A stretch of DNA of 61,963 nucleotides, taken from the NCBI GenBank assembly GCA_051382335.1, contig JBBCAX010000050.1, positions 1 through 61,963 of the forward strand, written 5' to 3'. Of this stretch, positions 27,581 through 61,055 are shown piece after piece. Under the pieces are notes generated by a model. It was not told the DNA's origin, made no database searches, and saw only the letters and a list, made by a program, of their open reading frames with translations. The translations under genes and the position numbers were made by a program. The first letter of the stretch is position 1. The number at the start of each line of letters is the position of its first letter. This DNA comes from Deltaproteobacteria bacterium TL4 (GTDB taxonomy: Bacteria; SAR324; NAC60-12).

Positions 27581-27760
27581 GGGGTACCCCCACATAAGCC
27601 GTGTGAAAGTTACTTTTGTACCTGGATCACCAGGTGGGGTAAGGTATAAAGGGTTCAGGCTTCCTTAATTAAAAGGCATGCACACCCCCCTCAGGGACAA
27701 ACCCCTTTTTAATAAAAAAGGTGCAAAAGACTAACATCACGAGAATCGCAGGGATACTCC
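27581..27760 (-). ncRNA. ssrS: 6S RNA
   Basis: Directly downstream of zapA on the same strand; closing stem GGAGUAUCCCUGCG / UGUGGGGGUACCCC; CCCACCU and CACACGGC motifs typical of 6S; about 180 nt. Confidence 0.8.
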
Positions 27761-29937: not shown

Positions 29938-30981
29938 TTAGATACTGATAGCAAATTCAGTAATGAACTGTGTCGCGTCTCCACCCAGTTGATCAGTAGA
30001 CCACAAGCCAAATGTTACGTTGCCAGGACCTAAAGGCAATTCGACGGCAAGGGTGGTATTACTCCAAGTGTTCACCCCAGCTTTTCCACCACCGGTACCA
30101 TCATCACGAGATTCTATGGCGATGGTTATTCCTAATAACCCAGCTACATTATGCAAATCAATGCCTAAAAGAGTATCCACTGCGGTATCGGTACCATCAT
30201 TCTTAGTTCCATAAGCCGCAAAGGGGGCAAACATTCCTGCTGTGTACTGAACGCCTAGTCCCATTGCACTCGTTGCATCACCAGCGGATACCCCAGCAGC
30301 AGTGGCTATATCATTATCAGACTCTGACGCATTTTCTAGTTCAAAAGCGGCGCTCAAGCCTCCAACTGCGTAAGTCGCAATTACGTCAAAGACCTGAGAC
30401 TGAAGCGTAACAGAACCAGGTGTTCCAGCAGCCGTGGTATAACTATGTTTATTTTGCCCCGATATCAAACCTAGCGTTAATTTGAGTCCCTCGCTTGGTG
30501 CCAAGAATACCGCTAACGTTGGAGCATCATCCGCTTCGTCTCCATAAGTTCCCTCCGATGCGTTACCTTGTTCAGTGGCATAGGTTTTTCCTAGGTCACT
30601 ACCATTGTATCCTCCACCGCTGAGATCAACTAATCCAGCGATAACCCCAAAAGAACCGGAAGAAAGCGTCATGAAAACTTCATCCGCTTTGTTCAACTGT
30701 CCATCGCCTTTTGTGTTTAGTTCCAGTTTAAGTGTACCCTCAGCCTTCCAGCCATCTTTTTCAGCAAGCTTGCCTTGGATCTTGACGTCGGAACGTCCAT
30801 AGGTATTCGTTGTTGAATAACCTGTATCCGCATTCTCAGGTGTATTCATGTAAATACCAGCATAAATATCGGCTTTATAGCAGAATGTCTTCTCATTCAT
30901 ACAAGCAGCTTGCGCTATAGATAGCCCAAAAAACGAAGTAACGCCGATTAACGCGAGACTTTTAATAGTTTTTGATAACAT
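29938..30981 (-). CDS. Probable outer-membrane porin
   Basis: Cleavable signal peptide (AQA), amphipathic beta-strands with Gly/Asp/Thr loops, alternating C-terminal strand. Confidence 0.7.
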   Translation of the reverse strand: MLSKTIKSLALIGVTSFFGLSIAQAACMNEKTFCYKADIYAGIYMNTPENADTGYSTTNTYGRSDVKIQGKLAEKDGWKAEGTLKLELNTKGDGQLNKADEVFMTLSSGSFGVIAGLVDLSGGGYNGSDLGKTYATEQGNASEGTYGDEADDAPTLAVFLAPSEGLKLTLGLISGQNKHSYTTAAGTPGSVTLQSQVFDVIATYAVGGLSAAFELENASESDNDIATAAGVSAGDATSAMGLGVQYTAGMFAPFAAYGTKNDGTDTAVDTLLGIDLHNVAGLLGITIAIESRDDGTGGGKAGVNTWSNTTLAVELPLGPGNVTFGLWSTDQLGGDATQFITEFAISI

Positions 30982-31033
30982 AATTTATATCCTTGAATTG
31001 GAGTTTGAATTAACCCGGCAAGAAGAACAACCC

Positions 31034-31420
31034 CTCTTAGTGCCAAGAGTACGTGACCCACTGACCACGTATCAAATACATTTTCACAGGTCTAAACGAA
31101 CCAACACCTCCAGGTGTTAGGCCTTCATAACCGTCATCCCAACTGAGAGGGACGTACAAAGCACCCTACTGGACAAAACTACCGCAGTAGAAAGTCGCTC
31201 AATGATCGCAATTCCTCCTTCCCCAAGTCTCAAAGGCAGAACTCGGAAAAAATTGCTCGTTTTTTTCACCAAGGGTGATGCTGTCACCTTTGCAAACAGC
31301 GTTCCAGAAGTGGCAACCATTTAGGTTTGATGGGTTTTTTGTTCCTTAGCAAACGCACAGAAACAATTTTCCCCTTTGCTTCCAGCCGATGAAACTGGAG
31401 CTTGTGAAAATTTGCTATGC
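31034..31420 (-). ncRNA. Candidate long structured 5' leader or ncRNA upstream of the porin gene
   Basis: At least nine consecutive stem-loops; several stems gain G-U pairs on the minus strand; no convincing ORF. Confidence 0.55.
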
Positions 31421-31516
31421 CCTATACCAAAATTGAACATCGAGTTATACGAATGACCAACTCCTTGTTAATACATGACTGTGCCTAAAAATCAAACAAC
31501 TGCAAAAATAAATTGC

Positions 31517-31536
31517 ATGTAATTTGACATTTACAT
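31517..31536. promoter_or_regulatory. Palindromic operator candidate
   Basis: ATGTAA-N8-TTACAT in the divergent intergenic region. Confidence 0.35.
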
Positions 31537-31673
31537 CCCAATTATTTTAAGATCCTGTTGAAACATTAAGGGTCATAGATTTTAATAGATAATTGCAAGG
31601 GGAGCCTTTCCTATTTTGAATCTGGCGTGGAGTCAATAAGATTAGTCATTGATATTATTAGCAAAGGAATGAT

Positions 31674-32009
31674 ATGAAAAAAGAACAGGTGAGACAACTT
31701 GTCGAATGTATGGTTATTGTCAGTCAAGCGGATGGCCTTCATGAAGAAGAGGTTAAATTTATGACCAGTATCCTCCTTCCCCTTTGGAAAGAAGAATCAA
31801 CCTCTCTAGATGAATTCGTCAATGCTGTCATTCAGGAAAATCTGCCTGCCTCCCGATTTATCCAAAGCGCCAGGGCTCTTGCAAAAGGTGTAGATCAACA
31901 TGAAAAACAAGTGGTTCTGAATTTGATGCAGAAATTAATGCTTGCGGATGGTATTTTTACTCATCAGGAAAAAGAATATTACGTTGAGTTCCAAAAATTG
32001 TTTAAATAG
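31674..32009 (+). CDS. TerB-family (tellurite resistance-like) protein
   Basis: Duplicated ADG...EE/QE motif (QADGLHEEE; LADGIFTHQEK). Confidence 0.75.
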   Translation: MKKEQVRQLVECMVIVSQADGLHEEEVKFMTSILLPLWKEESTSLDEFVNAVIQENLPASRFIQSARALAKGVDQHEKQVVLNLMQKLMLADGIFTHQEKEYYVEFQKLFK

Positions 32010-55943: not shown

Positions 55944-56459
55944 ATGCCCAAGAAAAGTAAGAATGAAAACGTCCCCAAGCAGATGCAAGCCACCTTTGAG
56001 GCTATTGTGGATTTAACGGATAAATTTTGTAAGGAAAGCCTCAACGAAGAATATGCCCTCTTGGCTCGTCAAGCGACAGCGGCCTTATGTCGTAAGCGTC
56101 CTTCTCCTTTAGAAGGTGGCCGGACCAACACATGGGCTTGTGGAATCATCTACGCGCTGGGATTTGTCAACTTTCTGTTCGACAAAGATAATCAGTTTTA
56201 CATAACCACCACCGATCTCTGCAAAGGGTTTGGCCTCAGTAAAAGTACAGGTGCCGCTAAAGCAAAGACCGTCCGTGATCTTTTGGAAATGTTTCAAATG
56301 TCCCCGGATTGGTACTTGCCCAGCAAGATGGAGGATAACGTTCACGCATGGTTGATTTCCGTCAATGGATTTATGGTAGATGCTCGTCATCTGTCTCGTG
56401 AAATACAAGAACTCGCCTTTGAAAAAGGGCTGATTCCCTATATACCCAGTGAGCAATGA
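55944..56459 (+). CDS. DUF6398-like protein
   Basis: TDKFCKESLNEEY, LCRKRPSPL, WACGIIYALG.VNFLFD, AFEKGLIPYIP (family recognised from memory). Confidence 0.75.
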   Translation: MPKKSKNENVPKQMQATFEAIVDLTDKFCKESLNEEYALLARQATAALCRKRPSPLEGGRTNTWACGIIYALGFVNFLFDKDNQFYITTTDLCKGFGLSKSTGAAKAKTVRDLLEMFQMSPDWYLPSKMEDNVHAWLISVNGFMVDARHLSREIQELAFEKGLIPYIPSEQ

Positions 56460-56492: not shown

Positions 56493-56637
56493 CTAGGTGG
56501 TTGTCCGAGAATGTGATGTAGGGTGTGCTTTAGCGAAGCGAGCGCACCAGAAAGCTGTCCCCTTATTTTTGGTGCGCTCGCTTCGCTTAAGCGGCACCCT
56601 ACTTAGGCTCAACTTCTATTCTCGGACAGAATCCTAG
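56493..56637. repeat. REP/MITE-like nested palindrome (copy 2, well preserved)
   Basis: CTAG ends; outer IR tgtccgagaat/attctcggaca; GTAGGGTG/CACCCTAC; inner 18-bp stem agcgaagcgagcgcacca/tggtgcgctcgcttcgct. Confidence 0.75.
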
Positions 56638-56795: not shown

Positions 56796-59700
56796 ATGAC
56801 AAAACAATTTTGTCTGGGGACCTTACTCCTATTCGGACTGTGCACCGTCCTTTTTCTGGGTGCCTGCACTTCGAATGATGAAGAGGTACAGCTATTTTTA
56901 AAAACAAAAAAGTGTGTCCAGTGTAATCTTCGAGGAGTTTCGTTTGATAAAATGAATCTCCAGGGGGCGGATCTGAGAGGCGCGTCTTTGAAAAGGACCA
57001 GTTTTGTTGGCGCAAACCTGGAAGGCGCCATATTTGACGATGCGGATTTAGTCCATGCGGATTTACGTGACAGCAATTTAAAAGGGGTGTCTTTTAAAGG
57101 GGTCTTGATGCAGAGGGCCCGCTTGCAGAGGGCCAATTTGGAGAACGCTGTTTTTCAAAATGCGGATTTGGAGGGCAGCAGTTTTGAAAGTGCCTGGATT
57201 CGAAAAGCCGATTTTTCAAAGGCACAAATGCAGGGAGCCAATTTTCGTTGGGCCATGCTCCAACAAGTGAACATGGAAGGCGCATGGCTGCATCGTGTTG
57301 ATTTCCAGGGCGCAAGCGGCCGCTATGCTAATTTTTTTAAAGCCAGTTTGAAGCATTCCTTTTTACACAAAGCTGACTTTAGGGACTCCAATTTTCAACA
57401 AGCCAGTCTGGAGAATACCCGCCTGGAAGGGGCCCTACTGGAAAACTCGAATTTTGATCGGGCTAACCTGGTTCGAACTCGTTTTGAAAAGGCCAATCTC
57501 ACACAGACGGTATTGACCCATATCAACGCAAAGGATGCGGTTTTTATAGGAGCCACGCTCACGAATGCGAATTTACGCAATGCCAACTTGGGGGGCGCTA
57601 TTTTCAGAGAAAGTCTTGTCCGAAGGGCCCAGTTTCAAAAGGCCAATTTGCAAAATTCGGATTTTAGCTGGGCCGAGATGGAAGCTGCCTCTTTTCAAGA
57701 AGCGCAGCTAACGAAAGCCGTTTTGAAAGGTGCCAATTTACTCAACGCGCAACTGCAAAACGCAAAGCTCCGGGATGCCATCCTCACCAGTGCCAATTTA
57801 CAGCAAGCCAACCTTTCAGGAGCCGATTTACACTGGGCCAATTTGAAAAAAGCAGATTTGCGTCATGCCAATTTGCAATTTGCCGATATCCACGGCACCG
57901 AGTTGTATGGGGCTCGTTTACAAGAGGCGACTTGGGTGGATGGAAACAGTGCCGGTTCCGTTCAGGAACAACTGTCTTTGAGTCGATCCATTGAGTTAAT
58001 GAATGATTATCTGCAAGAACTCCTTTCACCTCTGGCCATTGAGTTTGTTGACGATCCTTTTCGGATTATTTTAGGGCTATTTATTTTAGGCATCGGCTGG
58101 TATGTGATCCGACATCAGCGGCAATCAAAACAGGGAACCTTATTTTATCTTGCGCTCTTGACCCTCAGTATTGGCGTTGCGTTGATTACGACGACTAAAA
58201 TTACTTATCGGTGGTTTGGTGTTCCGCGACTTGGCGATGCTTTAGGTGCAGTGTCCATCTGTTTTATTCTGGGTAGTTTCAATACCCTGGTGGATCAGGT
58301 CTTGGGCTTTACCTCAAAAGTCTTTCTGCTGTGGACCTGGCGTCTTTTTATAGGAATCTCCATCCTGTTGTTGGTGCTGTTGGCCGTCATCTCCCCCTGG
58401 TTTGAAGATGTGATCTATGTTTCCAGTTGGATTGCTCTGCCCGGCATTTTTGCCCTGAGTGTGTTGGGCTTAATTTTTTACATCATTCCTCTAAATACGA
58501 TTTTGAGGGGATTGATTGCTGGCAATCCCGATGCCAAAATAATCACCATTTGTGGAACCCTGGGCTTCCTTTGTAGTGTTCCTCCCATACTCAAATACCT
58601 GGAAATCTTCAACTTGCCCGAATGGACTGAAAATTTACTCTTTTTGGGAAGCGCTATTTATTTTTCCTCTTACGGCTTTATTGGTCTGAGGCGATATATG
58701 GAGGTTAATCGCCAATTAGAAAATAACGCTCGTGTGCTTGAAGAAAAAAATGAGGAACTGTATTCAAAAAATATGGAGTTGTATCGAGCCAATCAGTTAA
58801 AAGATGAATTTCTCGCCAATACCTCTCATGAACTCAGAACGCCCCTCAATGGGATTGTGGGTATAGGCGAATCCATGCTGGCTGGAGCCACAGGAAAGCT
58901 AACTCCGATACAAAGAGTCAACCTCTCCATGATCACCACCAGTGGTCGCCGACTCAACGCGTTGGTGAATGATATCCTGGATTTTTCAAAACTGAAGCAC
59001 CGGAAACTCGATTTACAGATCAAAGCGTTGGGGATGAGGGAAATCACAGAGGTCGTTTTAATGATGTCACAACCGTTGATTGGCACTAAAAATCTGGAGT
59101 TAATTAATGCCATCAGTCATGACATGCCCAAAGTTGCCGCTGATGAAAATAGAGTTCAGCAAATCATGCATAATTTGATAGGCAACTCCCTCAAGTTTAC
59201 CCCTCAAGGAACGATAGAAATTTCCGCGGAAGTCCTCAAACCGTACTTGATGATTCGAGTCACTGATACGGGAATTGGGATTCCTGAAGATAAGTTGGAA
59301 ACGATTTTTGAGTCCTTTGAACAAGGGGACGGTTCCACAGCCCGTGAGTATGGAGGCACAGGCTTGGGGCTTTCCATTACCAAACAATTGATTGAGTTAC
59401 ATGAAGGCAATATCCGTGTTAAGTCGGTATTGGGAAAGGGCACAACCTTTGAGTTCTCACTCCCGTTGGCCAGTGAGAAAGGAGTTGAAGGCCACGAGTG
59501 TTTTGACCTCTTTAACAAAATCAAAGAACTCCCGCTGCATACGTTACTGGAAGGCAAAATGGCAAAAGATCCCCTTCTGTCGAAATTCAAAGATCTCCCC
59601 TTATTTGAATTGTTTAATGAAAAAACCTATGAATCTGTTTTTAGAAAGCTTAAAGAAGGAAGACTCACCGATATATTTGATGACACACATAACATCATTA

Positions 59701-61055
59701 TTGCTCAAATCAAACACAAATTGCCGTTCCTTTTAGAAGAAATTGAAGAAACCTTAAGAAGCAAGTGGCTAGAGCCTCCAAAGCGCGGACCTGTAAGAGA
59801 ACTTGACGCGCCTCCAGCCGAGCAAGGAGAGGCTGAACCGTTCAAACATTCTGAAGCGTTTCATATTTTGATTGTTGATGATGAGCCCATTAATTTACAG
59901 GTTTTGGTGAATTATTTATCTCTGGAAAAATATTCGGTAACCAAGGCTTCCAGCGGCGCTGAGGCCTTGGCGATAATTAAAGATCAGGCGCCTTTTGATC
60001 TGCTTTTGCTGGATGTGATGATGCCTCACATGACAGGGTATGAGTTATGCCAAATATTACGGAATAATTATCCTGCTCATGAACTCCCCATCGTGCTGTT
60101 GACCGCTAAAAATCAACCCGCTGATATCAAATCGGGTTTCGAATCCGGTGCCAATGATTATTTGACCAAACCGATTTCCAAAGATGAACTTTTAGCCAGA
60201 ATCAAGATTCATATCCAGCTTTCAAAAATCAACTCCGCCTATGGTCGTTTTGTTCCTCATGATTTGTTGCGTTTGCTAGGCAAGGAAAGCATTGTTGATG
60301 TACGGTTGGGAGATCAAGTAGAAAAAAAGATGTCTATTATGTTTTCGGATATCCGCTCGTTTACATCAATGTCTGAAAAAATGACTCCTGAAGAAAACTT
60401 TCAATTCATCAATGATTATCTCCATCAAATGGAACCCCTGGTGCTCCAGAATGGAGGATTTATTGACAAGTTTATCGGGGACGCCATTATGGCACTGTTT
60501 GAAAAAGACGCGGATCACGCCATTCAAGCCGCAATTGACATGCTTCAGCGCTTAAAAACGTATAATTTCGACCGGGGAAAACTGGGGTATTTGCCCATTA
60601 AAGTAGGGATTGGAATCAATACGGGGTTATTGATGTTAGGAACCATTGGAGGCCCCAATCGTATGGACGGAACCGTGATTAGTGATGCCGTGAATTTAGC
60701 GGCACGAGTTGAGAGCATGACCAAAGTTTATGGGACCTCCCTTTTAATTACGGAATATACGTTCCATGAGCTTAAGAAACCACTGGCCTTTTGTACCCGA
60801 ATCATTGATCGCGTTACCGTCAAAGGAAAAGTCGATCCTGTCACTGTTTTTGAGATTTATGATGGAGATCCCGCGGAACTGAAACAGCAAAAAACGGAAA
60901 TGGCCCGGGCTTTTGAAGAAGCCATTGCTATCTTTCACTTGCAGCGTTTTACTGAGGCCAAGTCTTTATTTGAGGAATGTCTTGAACACTGTCCTGAAGA
61001 TATCGCGACCAAACTTTATCTTCACCGCTGTAGCGAAGCGGTGAGGCAATCTTAA
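56796..61055 (+). CDS. Hybrid sensor: lipoprotein pentapeptide repeats + 7TM + HisKA/HATPase + REC + class III cyclase
   Basis: Lipobox LGAC; about 340 aa of A(D/N)Lxx repeats; 7 hydrophobic segments; SHELRTPLN, NSLKFT, DTGIG, GGTGLGL; LLDVMMP; FSDIRSFT, DKFIGDAIM, VNLAARVE. Confidence 0.9.
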   Translation: MTKQFCLGTLLLFGLCTVLFLGACTSNDEEVQLFLKTKKCVQCNLRGVSFDKMNLQGADLRGASLKRTSFVGANLEGAIFDDADLVHADLRDSNLKGVSFKGVLMQRARLQRANLENAVFQNADLEGSSFESAWIRKADFSKAQMQGANFRWAMLQQVNMEGAWLHRVDFQGASGRYANFFKASLKHSFLHKADFRDSNFQQASLENTRLEGALLENSNFDRANLVRTRFEKANLTQTVLTHINAKDAVFIGATLTNANLRNANLGGAIFRESLVRRAQFQKANLQNSDFSWAEMEAASFQEAQLTKAVLKGANLLNAQLQNAKLRDAILTSANLQQANLSGADLHWANLKKADLRHANLQFADIHGTELYGARLQEATWVDGNSAGSVQEQLSLSRSIELMNDYLQELLSPLAIEFVDDPFRIILGLFILGIGWYVIRHQRQSKQGTLFYLALLTLSIGVALITTTKITYRWFGVPRLGDALGAVSICFILGSFNTLVDQVLGFTSKVFLLWTWRLFIGISILLLVLLAVISPWFEDVIYVSSWIALPGIFALSVLGLIFYIIPLNTILRGLIAGNPDAKIITICGTLGFLCSVPPILKYLEIFNLPEWTENLLFLGSAIYFSSYGFIGLRRYMEVNRQLENNARVLEEKNEELYSKNMELYRANQLKDEFLANTSHELRTPLNGIVGIGESMLAGATGKLTPIQRVNLSMITTSGRRLNALVNDILDFSKLKHRKLDLQIKALGMREITEVVLMMSQPLIGTKNLELINAISHDMPKVAADENRVQQIMHNLIGNSLKFTPQGTIEISAEVLKPYLMIRVTDTGIGIPEDKLETIFESFEQGDGSTAREYGGTGLGLSITKQLIELHEGNIRVKSVLGKGTTFEFSLPLASEKGVEGHECFDLFNKIKELPLHTLLEGKMAKDPLLSKFKDLPLFELFNEKTYESVFRKLKEGRLTDIFDDTHNIIIAQIKHKLPFLLEEIEETLRSKWLEPPKRGPVRELDAPPAEQGEAEPFKHSEAFHILIVDDEPINLQVLVNYLSLEKYSVTKASSGAEALAIIKDQAPFDLLLLDVMMPHMTGYELCQILRNNYPAHELPIVLLTAKNQPADIKSGFESGANDYLTKPISKDELLARIKIHIQLSKINSAYGRFVPHDLLRLLGKESIVDVRLGDQVEKKMSIMFSDIRSFTSMSEKMTPEENFQFINDYLHQMEPLVLQNGGFIDKFIGDAIMALFEKDADHAIQAAIDMLQRLKTYNFDRGKLGYLPIKVGIGINTGLLMLGTIGGPNRMDGTVISDAVNLAARVESMTKVYGTSLLITEYTFHELKKPLAFCTRIIDRVTVKGKVDPVTVFEIYDGDPAELKQQKTEMARAFEEAIAIFHLQRFTEAKSLFEECLEHCPEDIATKLYLHRCSEAVRQS

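Follow-up and report, generated by a model that had tools for sequence, protein, structure and literature searches.

A candidate structured 5′ leader of a porin gene in Deltaproteobacteria bacterium TL4, with two hairpins kept in a second genomic copy

The 5′ untranslated region (5′ UTR) of the Escherichia coli ompA gene is reportedly an mRNA stabiliser, a role said to have been described by Emory, Bouvet and Belasco in 1992 and by Arnold, Yu and Belasco in 1998; the same two studies are said to give the ompA leader a length of 133 nt and to place the hairpin hp1 at its 5′ end. Stabilisers of this type reportedly feature, following the 1992 study, a stem-loop located at the mRNA 5′ end or within a few nucleotides of it. 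The stabilisation of ompA mRNA by elements of its 5′ UTR is also described in two further reports (PMC2777011; PMC7509114), and the 5′ UTR of rne is an example of a long structured enterobacterial leader (PMC13692253). Leaders of the rne type run for several hundred nucleotides ahead of the coding region and contain several stem-loops, and a reading of the locus considered here as an RNA of about 400 nt, proposed in a first-pass annotation of the DNA upstream of a porin gene, would resemble them. However, the stem-loops of rne-type leaders are conserved and functionally mapped, whereas the distal 300 nt of the porin locus are present in a single copy and have a centre that folds at chance level. 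The reading that we favour is a structured 5′ leader of the porin gene, ~110-145 nt long, ordinary in kind and specific to the lineage, which is backed by a paralogous copy and is likely to be a stabiliser of the ompA kind.

The window, that is, the whole 61,963-nt stretch of DNA that was analysed, is contig C50 of a 6.59-Mb assembly in 445 contigs, the only one in the set of compared genomes to represent its genus. The spacer of interest is 692 nt long (30982-31673) and separates two divergent genes, the porin gene, which encodes 347 aa on the minus strand (29938-30981; Porin_4, Pfam PF13609, E 4.1e-10), and a gene encoding a TerB domain on the plus strand (31674-32009; Pfam PF05099, E 1.1e-07). 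The GC content of the spacer is uneven, with 45.7% in 31034-31420 and 32% in 31421-31673, for a genome mean of 43.4%. Judging by composition, the AT-rich zone 31421-31673 is presumably the site of the divergent promoters; the GC-rich block 31034-31420 looks unlike plain promoter spacer, and composition alone leaves its identity unspecified. A word-based search of 5.8 billion proteins, in which 7997 candidates were scored, returned as relatives of the porin the protein itself and one paralogue (62%) encoded on contig C93 of the same genome, and, judged from this search, the product of 29938-30981 (minus strand) is an orphan. Protein and alignment searches of genome and metagenome contig collections yielded no confirmed relative, and the search of 44 genomes of the family gave weak matches alone, all of them in one genome (G009). 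At the DNA level, the 692-nt spacer matched none of 40 relatives (0/40), nor were there blastn matches to plasmids or to phages; a tblastx comparison of the spacer with its own genome gave contig C86 as the sole match.

Nothing in the spacer matches a known RNA family; the first look at the DNA had likewise brought up no known riboswitch, tmRNA, RNase P or SRP RNA. Scanned against Rfam 15 at gathering score, the spacer gave no covariance-model match, and relaxing the threshold to E up to 10 added one spurious match, to a eukaryotic lncRNA (18.6 bits). Over the whole window, the only match at gathering score was 6S RNA (27583-27757), which lies on the minus strand and is recognized with 80.6 bits over the full length of RF00013. 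A repeat of the REP/REPIN/MITE type was considered as well and rejected: blastn with word sizes of 7-9 and a covariance model of the leader (R1) find C50 and C86 only. Palindromes of this type, which are abundant in the genome and of which one resides in the window at 56496-56635, are likewise hairpin-forming intergenic DNA, but the porin spacer, unlike them, is not repeated, having a single partial copy (on C86) in 6.6 Mb. The element at 56496-56635 is a near-perfect palindrome of ~140 nt, located between the open reading frames (ORFs) 55944-56459(+) and 56796-61055(+), and no other part of the contig reaches so negative a GC-adjusted fold energy; since it produces 365 blastn HSPs genome-wide, it is a dispersed repeat of the REP/REPIN/MITE type.

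The nine inverted repeats that had been recognized in 31034-31420 all fold as hairpins in their places. G-U pairing favours the minus, porin-sense strand, as had been noted for several of the mismatches, and seven of the nine have lower minimum free energy (MFE) on that strand; 31088-31124 is lower on the plus strand, and 31266-31278 is equal on both. The repeat at 31050-31071, for instance, forms 9 bp as minus-strand RNA, two of them G-U, but only 6 bp when the plus strand is folded. The z-scores of individual stems (-1.0 to -3.4) are inflated because the intervals were cut at the ends of their own inverted repeats. Folded as a whole, the minus strand of 31034-31420 reaches -123.4 kcal/mol, compared with -110.7 ± 6.3 for dinucleotide shuffles (z -2.03, 4/100 shuffles as good), and the plus strand -94.4 kcal/mol (z -0.66, 24/100 as good). 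A GC-adjusted energy as low as that of 31034-31420 was found in 2 of 452 background windows of 387 nt on the same contig (226 positions on two strands, taken from roughly its first 58.5 kb), and the window that contains the 6S RNA scores about equal. The fold signal of the region is strand-specific, yet modest. It is also unevenly distributed: in 120-nt sliding windows on the minus strand, z lies between -0.64 and +0.89, that is, at chance level, across 31110-31350 and between -0.9 and -1.6 on the proximal (porin) side, and reaches its best value, -3.26, at 31320-31439, a segment for which the plus strand gives -0.14. Comparison with shuffled sequence thus favours structure modestly for 31034-31420 as a whole (z -2.03) and also for the distal segment 31336-31439 (z -2.9), but not for the central 240 nt. 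The notion of a single densely structured RNA of ~400 nt is not supported, since 31110-31350 folds like shuffled sequence and the homology to C86 ends at ~31092-31125.

The match on contig C86 (C86:2231-2321) aligns with window positions 31001-31091 at 84% identity and continues through roughly 14 codons of the porin start before it ends, so that the block shared by the two contigs consists of the proximal ~110-145 nt and about 14 codons of the porin gene. By eye, the remnant on C86 reads as about 28 codons of open frame; it adjoins two ORFs with HTH_33/DDE_3 transposase domains, and C86:2175, the end of a repeated element, lies no more than about 6 nt from the end of the porin homology. Given the adjoining transposase ORFs and the near coincidence of the two ends, the C86 copy is what an IS-type element has left of a third porin gene, namely its head. 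In the coordinates of L002 (C86), the porin head, with about 14 shared codons and a short non-homologous tail, occupies 1396-1482, beside 390-1295. Elsewhere on this contig, an element of ~200 nt (C86:631-835) recurs on many contigs at about 98-99.5% identity and accounts for most of the 137 HSPs that a 2.3-kb C86 query produces in its own genome, and immediately before a gene that encodes a Guanylate_cyc domain (from L002 1927) lies an ORF of 51 aa (L002 1765-1920, plus strand), which has AAGGAGG as a strong Shine-Dalgarno (SD) sequence and no Pfam match. In the direction away from the porin, the homology fades between 31092 and 31125, and local alignment of 31092-31673 with the upstream sequence of C86 scored 19, which is at chance, the mean for shuffled sequence being 19.3. 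The covariance model R1 identified no further copy of the leader in its own genome and none in the 44 genomes of the family. A pattern scan for the hairpin at 31050-31071 in large collections returned three metagenome matches and one genome match, found in a HigA-like coding region (by eye), in a tandem repeat and in a Streptomyces record; these were rejected as relatives, their agreement being limited to the 20-22-nt pattern and their contexts being unrelated.

The shared block contains two hairpins on the minus strand, which we denote A and B′. Hairpin A (31050-31071) has 9 bp, two of them G-U, and a 4-nt loop, is paired in every leader length that was modelled and keeps 9/9 pairs in C86, where it differs from the window copy by a change of G-U to A-U and one of U-A to U-G. 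Hairpin B′ (31016-31045) consists of 5+5 bp around an internal loop, with 2 additional pairs in the window copy, and replaces the stem at 31034-31049 (stem B): the latter, proposed in the first-pass annotation, does exist, but in context both copies prefer the longer hairpin at 31016-31045/47, which uses the same AAGAG arm. All 10 of the 10 pairs of B′ are kept, with one double change of G-U to U-G and two one-sided changes. The succession of A and B′ is the minimum-energy fold of each copy folded separately, and RNAalifold predicts the same two hairpins together with two small ones further upstream. The latter fall in 31088-31125, on the fading edge of the shared block, where small hairpins form in both copies and include one change of C-G to U-A; within this segment, 31101-31120 was flagged as terminator-like.

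Across A and B′, the two copies differ at 10/56 positions, six of which are in paired columns, and 19/19 pairs nevertheless remain standard, the changes being G-U/A-U, U-A/U-G, C-G/U-G and U-G/U-A, together with a double change of G-U/U-G. In simulations that place 10 changes at random, all 19 pairs are kept with P 0.0008-0.007, depending on the transition bias, and the 15/15 pairs of A and stem B survive six differences with a simulated P of 0.005-0.026; the simulations are flattered, the A and B′ structure having been derived from the two test sequences themselves. Sliding the partners against each other leaves 34-50% of the cells paired, whereas in register all 38 of the 38 cells of A and B′ pair. 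On the plus strand, the same positions pair in just 12/15 cases for A with B and 15/19 for A with B′, so that DNA palindromes fit the pattern worse than porin-sense RNA does. At one position, the window has G where C86 has U; this difference is balanced by a partner change in stem B (C to A) as well as in B′ (U to G), and the two alternative stems may both matter. The test of pair keeping compares two sequences, which are paralogues in one genome; with two rows, the shuffle control cannot discriminate (249/500), and, the C86 copy now being a dead gene, part of the divergence arose without selection. Taken alone, the proximal leader of the window copy is thermodynamically unremarkable, with z -0.83 over 103 nt and z -1.19 over 150 nt.

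The SD sequence of the porin gene, AAGGAU (30989-30994, minus strand), is predicted to be about half unpaired, with a mean unpaired probability of 0.49-0.54, for modelled 5′ ends at 31078, 31125, 31440 and 31560. As this is the case whichever 5′ end is modelled, the models give no hint of an expression platform that would hide the ribosome-binding site. Between the SD and hairpin B′, a stretch of 14 nt (31001-31014, minus strand) is identical in the two copies and is predicted to be mostly single-stranded (unpaired 0.61-0.62). Exact copies of this 14-mer occur in C50 and C86 only, with five one-mismatch matches elsewhere versus one for a reversed control, and a search for complementary or repeated copies gave chance-level one-mismatch matches alone. 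The leader of the C93 paralogue (62%) is unrelated in sequence to that of the window; its last 150 nt (L003 1267-1416) nevertheless fold well, with z -2.88 (1/200), into a pair of neighbouring hairpins that are followed by an open SD. By eye, a single-stranded motif resembling UUCAAAC immediately precedes the SD in both the C93 and the window leaders. With regard to host factors, two open frames, one of 922 aa and one of 504 aa, match PF10150 above the cut-off and identify genes of the RNase E/G type, and Hfq (PF17209) gave 0 matches in the genome, the assembly of which is estimated to be 100% complete; the Hfq/sRNA layer of the ompA style is, for this reason, probably missing.

We tentatively favour, with doubt slightly outweighing belief, the reading in which 30982 to about 31125 is a structured leader of the porin mRNA and in which A and B′ stabilize the message in the manner of ompA, with the ribosome-binding site open. 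Under this reading, the leader would be transcribed from a start located further upstream, A and B′ would be RNA structures maintained by selection, and the two hairpins would shield the message from 5′-end-dependent decay, as do elements of the E. coli ompA 5′ UTR, while leaving, as the predicted SD accessibility suggests, the ribosome-binding site open. The original proposal of a cis-regulatory or stabilizing leader is thereby retained for its sense-strand structure and for the two proximal hairpins kept in the 84% copy, but not for the whole ~400 nt. The remainder of the block, 31126-31420, is most likely either untranscribed spacer or the distal portion of a long 5′ UTR. No second copy, family or homologue of it was found in any collection searched. 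The central segment 31126-31335, read on the minus strand, is present in a single copy and is GC-rich for spacer, with hairpins at chance level (sliding z about 0), and the stems within 31126-31420 are what chance gives, apart from the distal one. The latter is a long irregular hairpin on the minus strand at the border of the GC-rich and AT-rich zones (31336-31439; z -2.91, 2/200 shuffles, folded as 31330-31440), for which a short-word blastn search of the genome for a second copy gave matches with E >= 0.14 only. Promoter candidates were ranked by approximate position frequencies, used as a ranking device only, which gave only weak sites and nothing decisive. On the minus strand, all candidates are weak, and the one that the scan proposed lies inside the start of the TerB gene; no convincing sigma-70 site was found just upstream of hairpin A, and on the plus strand TTGACA-18-TAAGAT (31524-31553) is a candidate. 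Promoter motifs of the sigma-54 and Bacteroidota types were considered by eye and dropped.

Other readings of the spacer have to be set against the short stabilizing leader. The stems might be chance inverted repeats or DNA palindromes, an operator for example, devoid of RNA function, with the keeping of the pairs a matter of luck; we hold this to be unlikely. The local z-scores, mostly within ±1.7, the comparison of two sequences only, the conserved ACGTG...CACGT core of hairpin A, which could bind a dimeric protein, and a weak promoter candidate that spans hairpin A (TTGATA-18-TACTCT) are all compatible with it, but the hexamers of this candidate are not kept in C86 (by eye), the changes between the copies resolve as G-U/A-U and G-U/U-G, which is of relevance to minus-strand RNA only, and 19/19 pairs form on the minus strand against 15/19 on the plus strand, with P 0.0008-0.007 for all being kept. 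It seems to us distinctly unlikely that the stretch from about 31440 to the start codon is one structured 5′ UTR of ~450 nt, a sensor or regulatory unit with its promoter at the AT/GC border. Such a unit would account for the minus-strand energy of the whole region (z -2.03, 4/100; 2/452 background windows as low), for the strand asymmetry (-123.4 versus -94.4 kcal/mol) and for the sharp GC step at about 31420 (46% versus 32%), where the distal hairpin (z -2.91) begins, and a weak candidate, TTAACA-16-TATAAC, would set the start near 31437. Yet the -10 element of that candidate is without the invariant final T, the central 240 nt have z about 0, the 9-nt long-range helix that closes the MFE fold is, by our estimate, about what chance provides in 690 nt, Rfam has no match at E 10 and the SD is unsequestered in every model; moreover, the C86 leader shares nothing upstream of about 31125, so that a related porin leader managed without this part. 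We also strongly doubt that 31016-31440 on the minus strand is one lineage-restricted leader RNA of ~430 nt, peculiar to an orphan porin family and falling in no described RNA class, with the long 5′ hairpin (31336-31439) first and the two conserved hairpins last.

Two further readings, both rated low, take the block out of the porin message. The first-pass annotation had offered an independent large ncRNA as an option, and the GC-rich block, bounded by the distal hairpin, together with the terminator-like hairpin at 31101-31120, might be taken for a small RNA of its own on the minus strand, running from about 31440 to about 31100 and ending at that hairpin. This is very unlikely. The terminator candidate comprises an 8-bp stem followed by the tail UUCGUUUAGA, a poor U tract, and is the 1 site found where 0.7 were expected; in the aligned segment of C86, the small hairpin is a different one, and the sequence after it is A-rich, without a U tract; the minus strand offers no good promoter; the body folds like shuffled sequence; and neither an Rfam match nor a homologue was found, the latter in its own genome, the 40 relatives, the 44 family genomes, plasmids or phages. 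It is scarcely credible, in turn, that the block encodes a protein of 67 aa (31117-31320, minus strand), the hairpin over its stop codon being the terminator. The frame is open from an ATG start to a stop codon inside hairpin 31101-31120, with a codon score of 0.063 it ranks at the 94th percentile among false ORFs, and it has one HMMER match (E 2.3e-05), but the same codon score is just at the 5th percentile of chunks of true genes, no SD precedes the ATG (by eye), and the frame is absent from the called proteins of the genome, whereas the porin and its paralogue are present. There is no Pfam match and otherwise no homologue, the lone match being a 730-aa repeat protein with a score summed over five weak stretches of 26-37% identity, and the opposite strand is open across the same 67 codons, in a frame that itself has no family and no credible homologue. 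The ORF at 31117-31320 is probably not a gene.

The main value of these results is negative, in that a structured RNA of 400 nt shrinks to a leader of ~110-145 nt and one unexplained distal hairpin. If the hairpins of the short leader do stabilize the porin message, an ompA-style device would have arisen independently in an orphan porin family, in a lineage apparently without Hfq, which would be a modest addition to knowledge. The leader has no sequence relation to that of ompA, the gene belongs to the Porin_4 family rather than to OmpA, and Hfq was not found in this genome; furthermore, ompA is reported to carry its hairpin at the mRNA 5′ end, and the porin leader is likened to it by its hairpins and ribosome-binding site. 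In other respects, the porin leader parallels the 5′ UTR of ompA: it precedes the gene of a major outer-membrane beta-barrel protein and comprises, within about 110-145 nt, two hairpins, a single-stranded A/U-rich stretch and then an open ribosome-binding site, with hairpins on the sense strand that are kept among related leaders (19/19 pairs in 2/2 copies), a predicted accessibility of the SD (unpaired 0.49-0.54) and, in the host genome, RNase E/G homologues (two PF10150 matches) that point to an RNase E decay pathway such as that of the ompA host.
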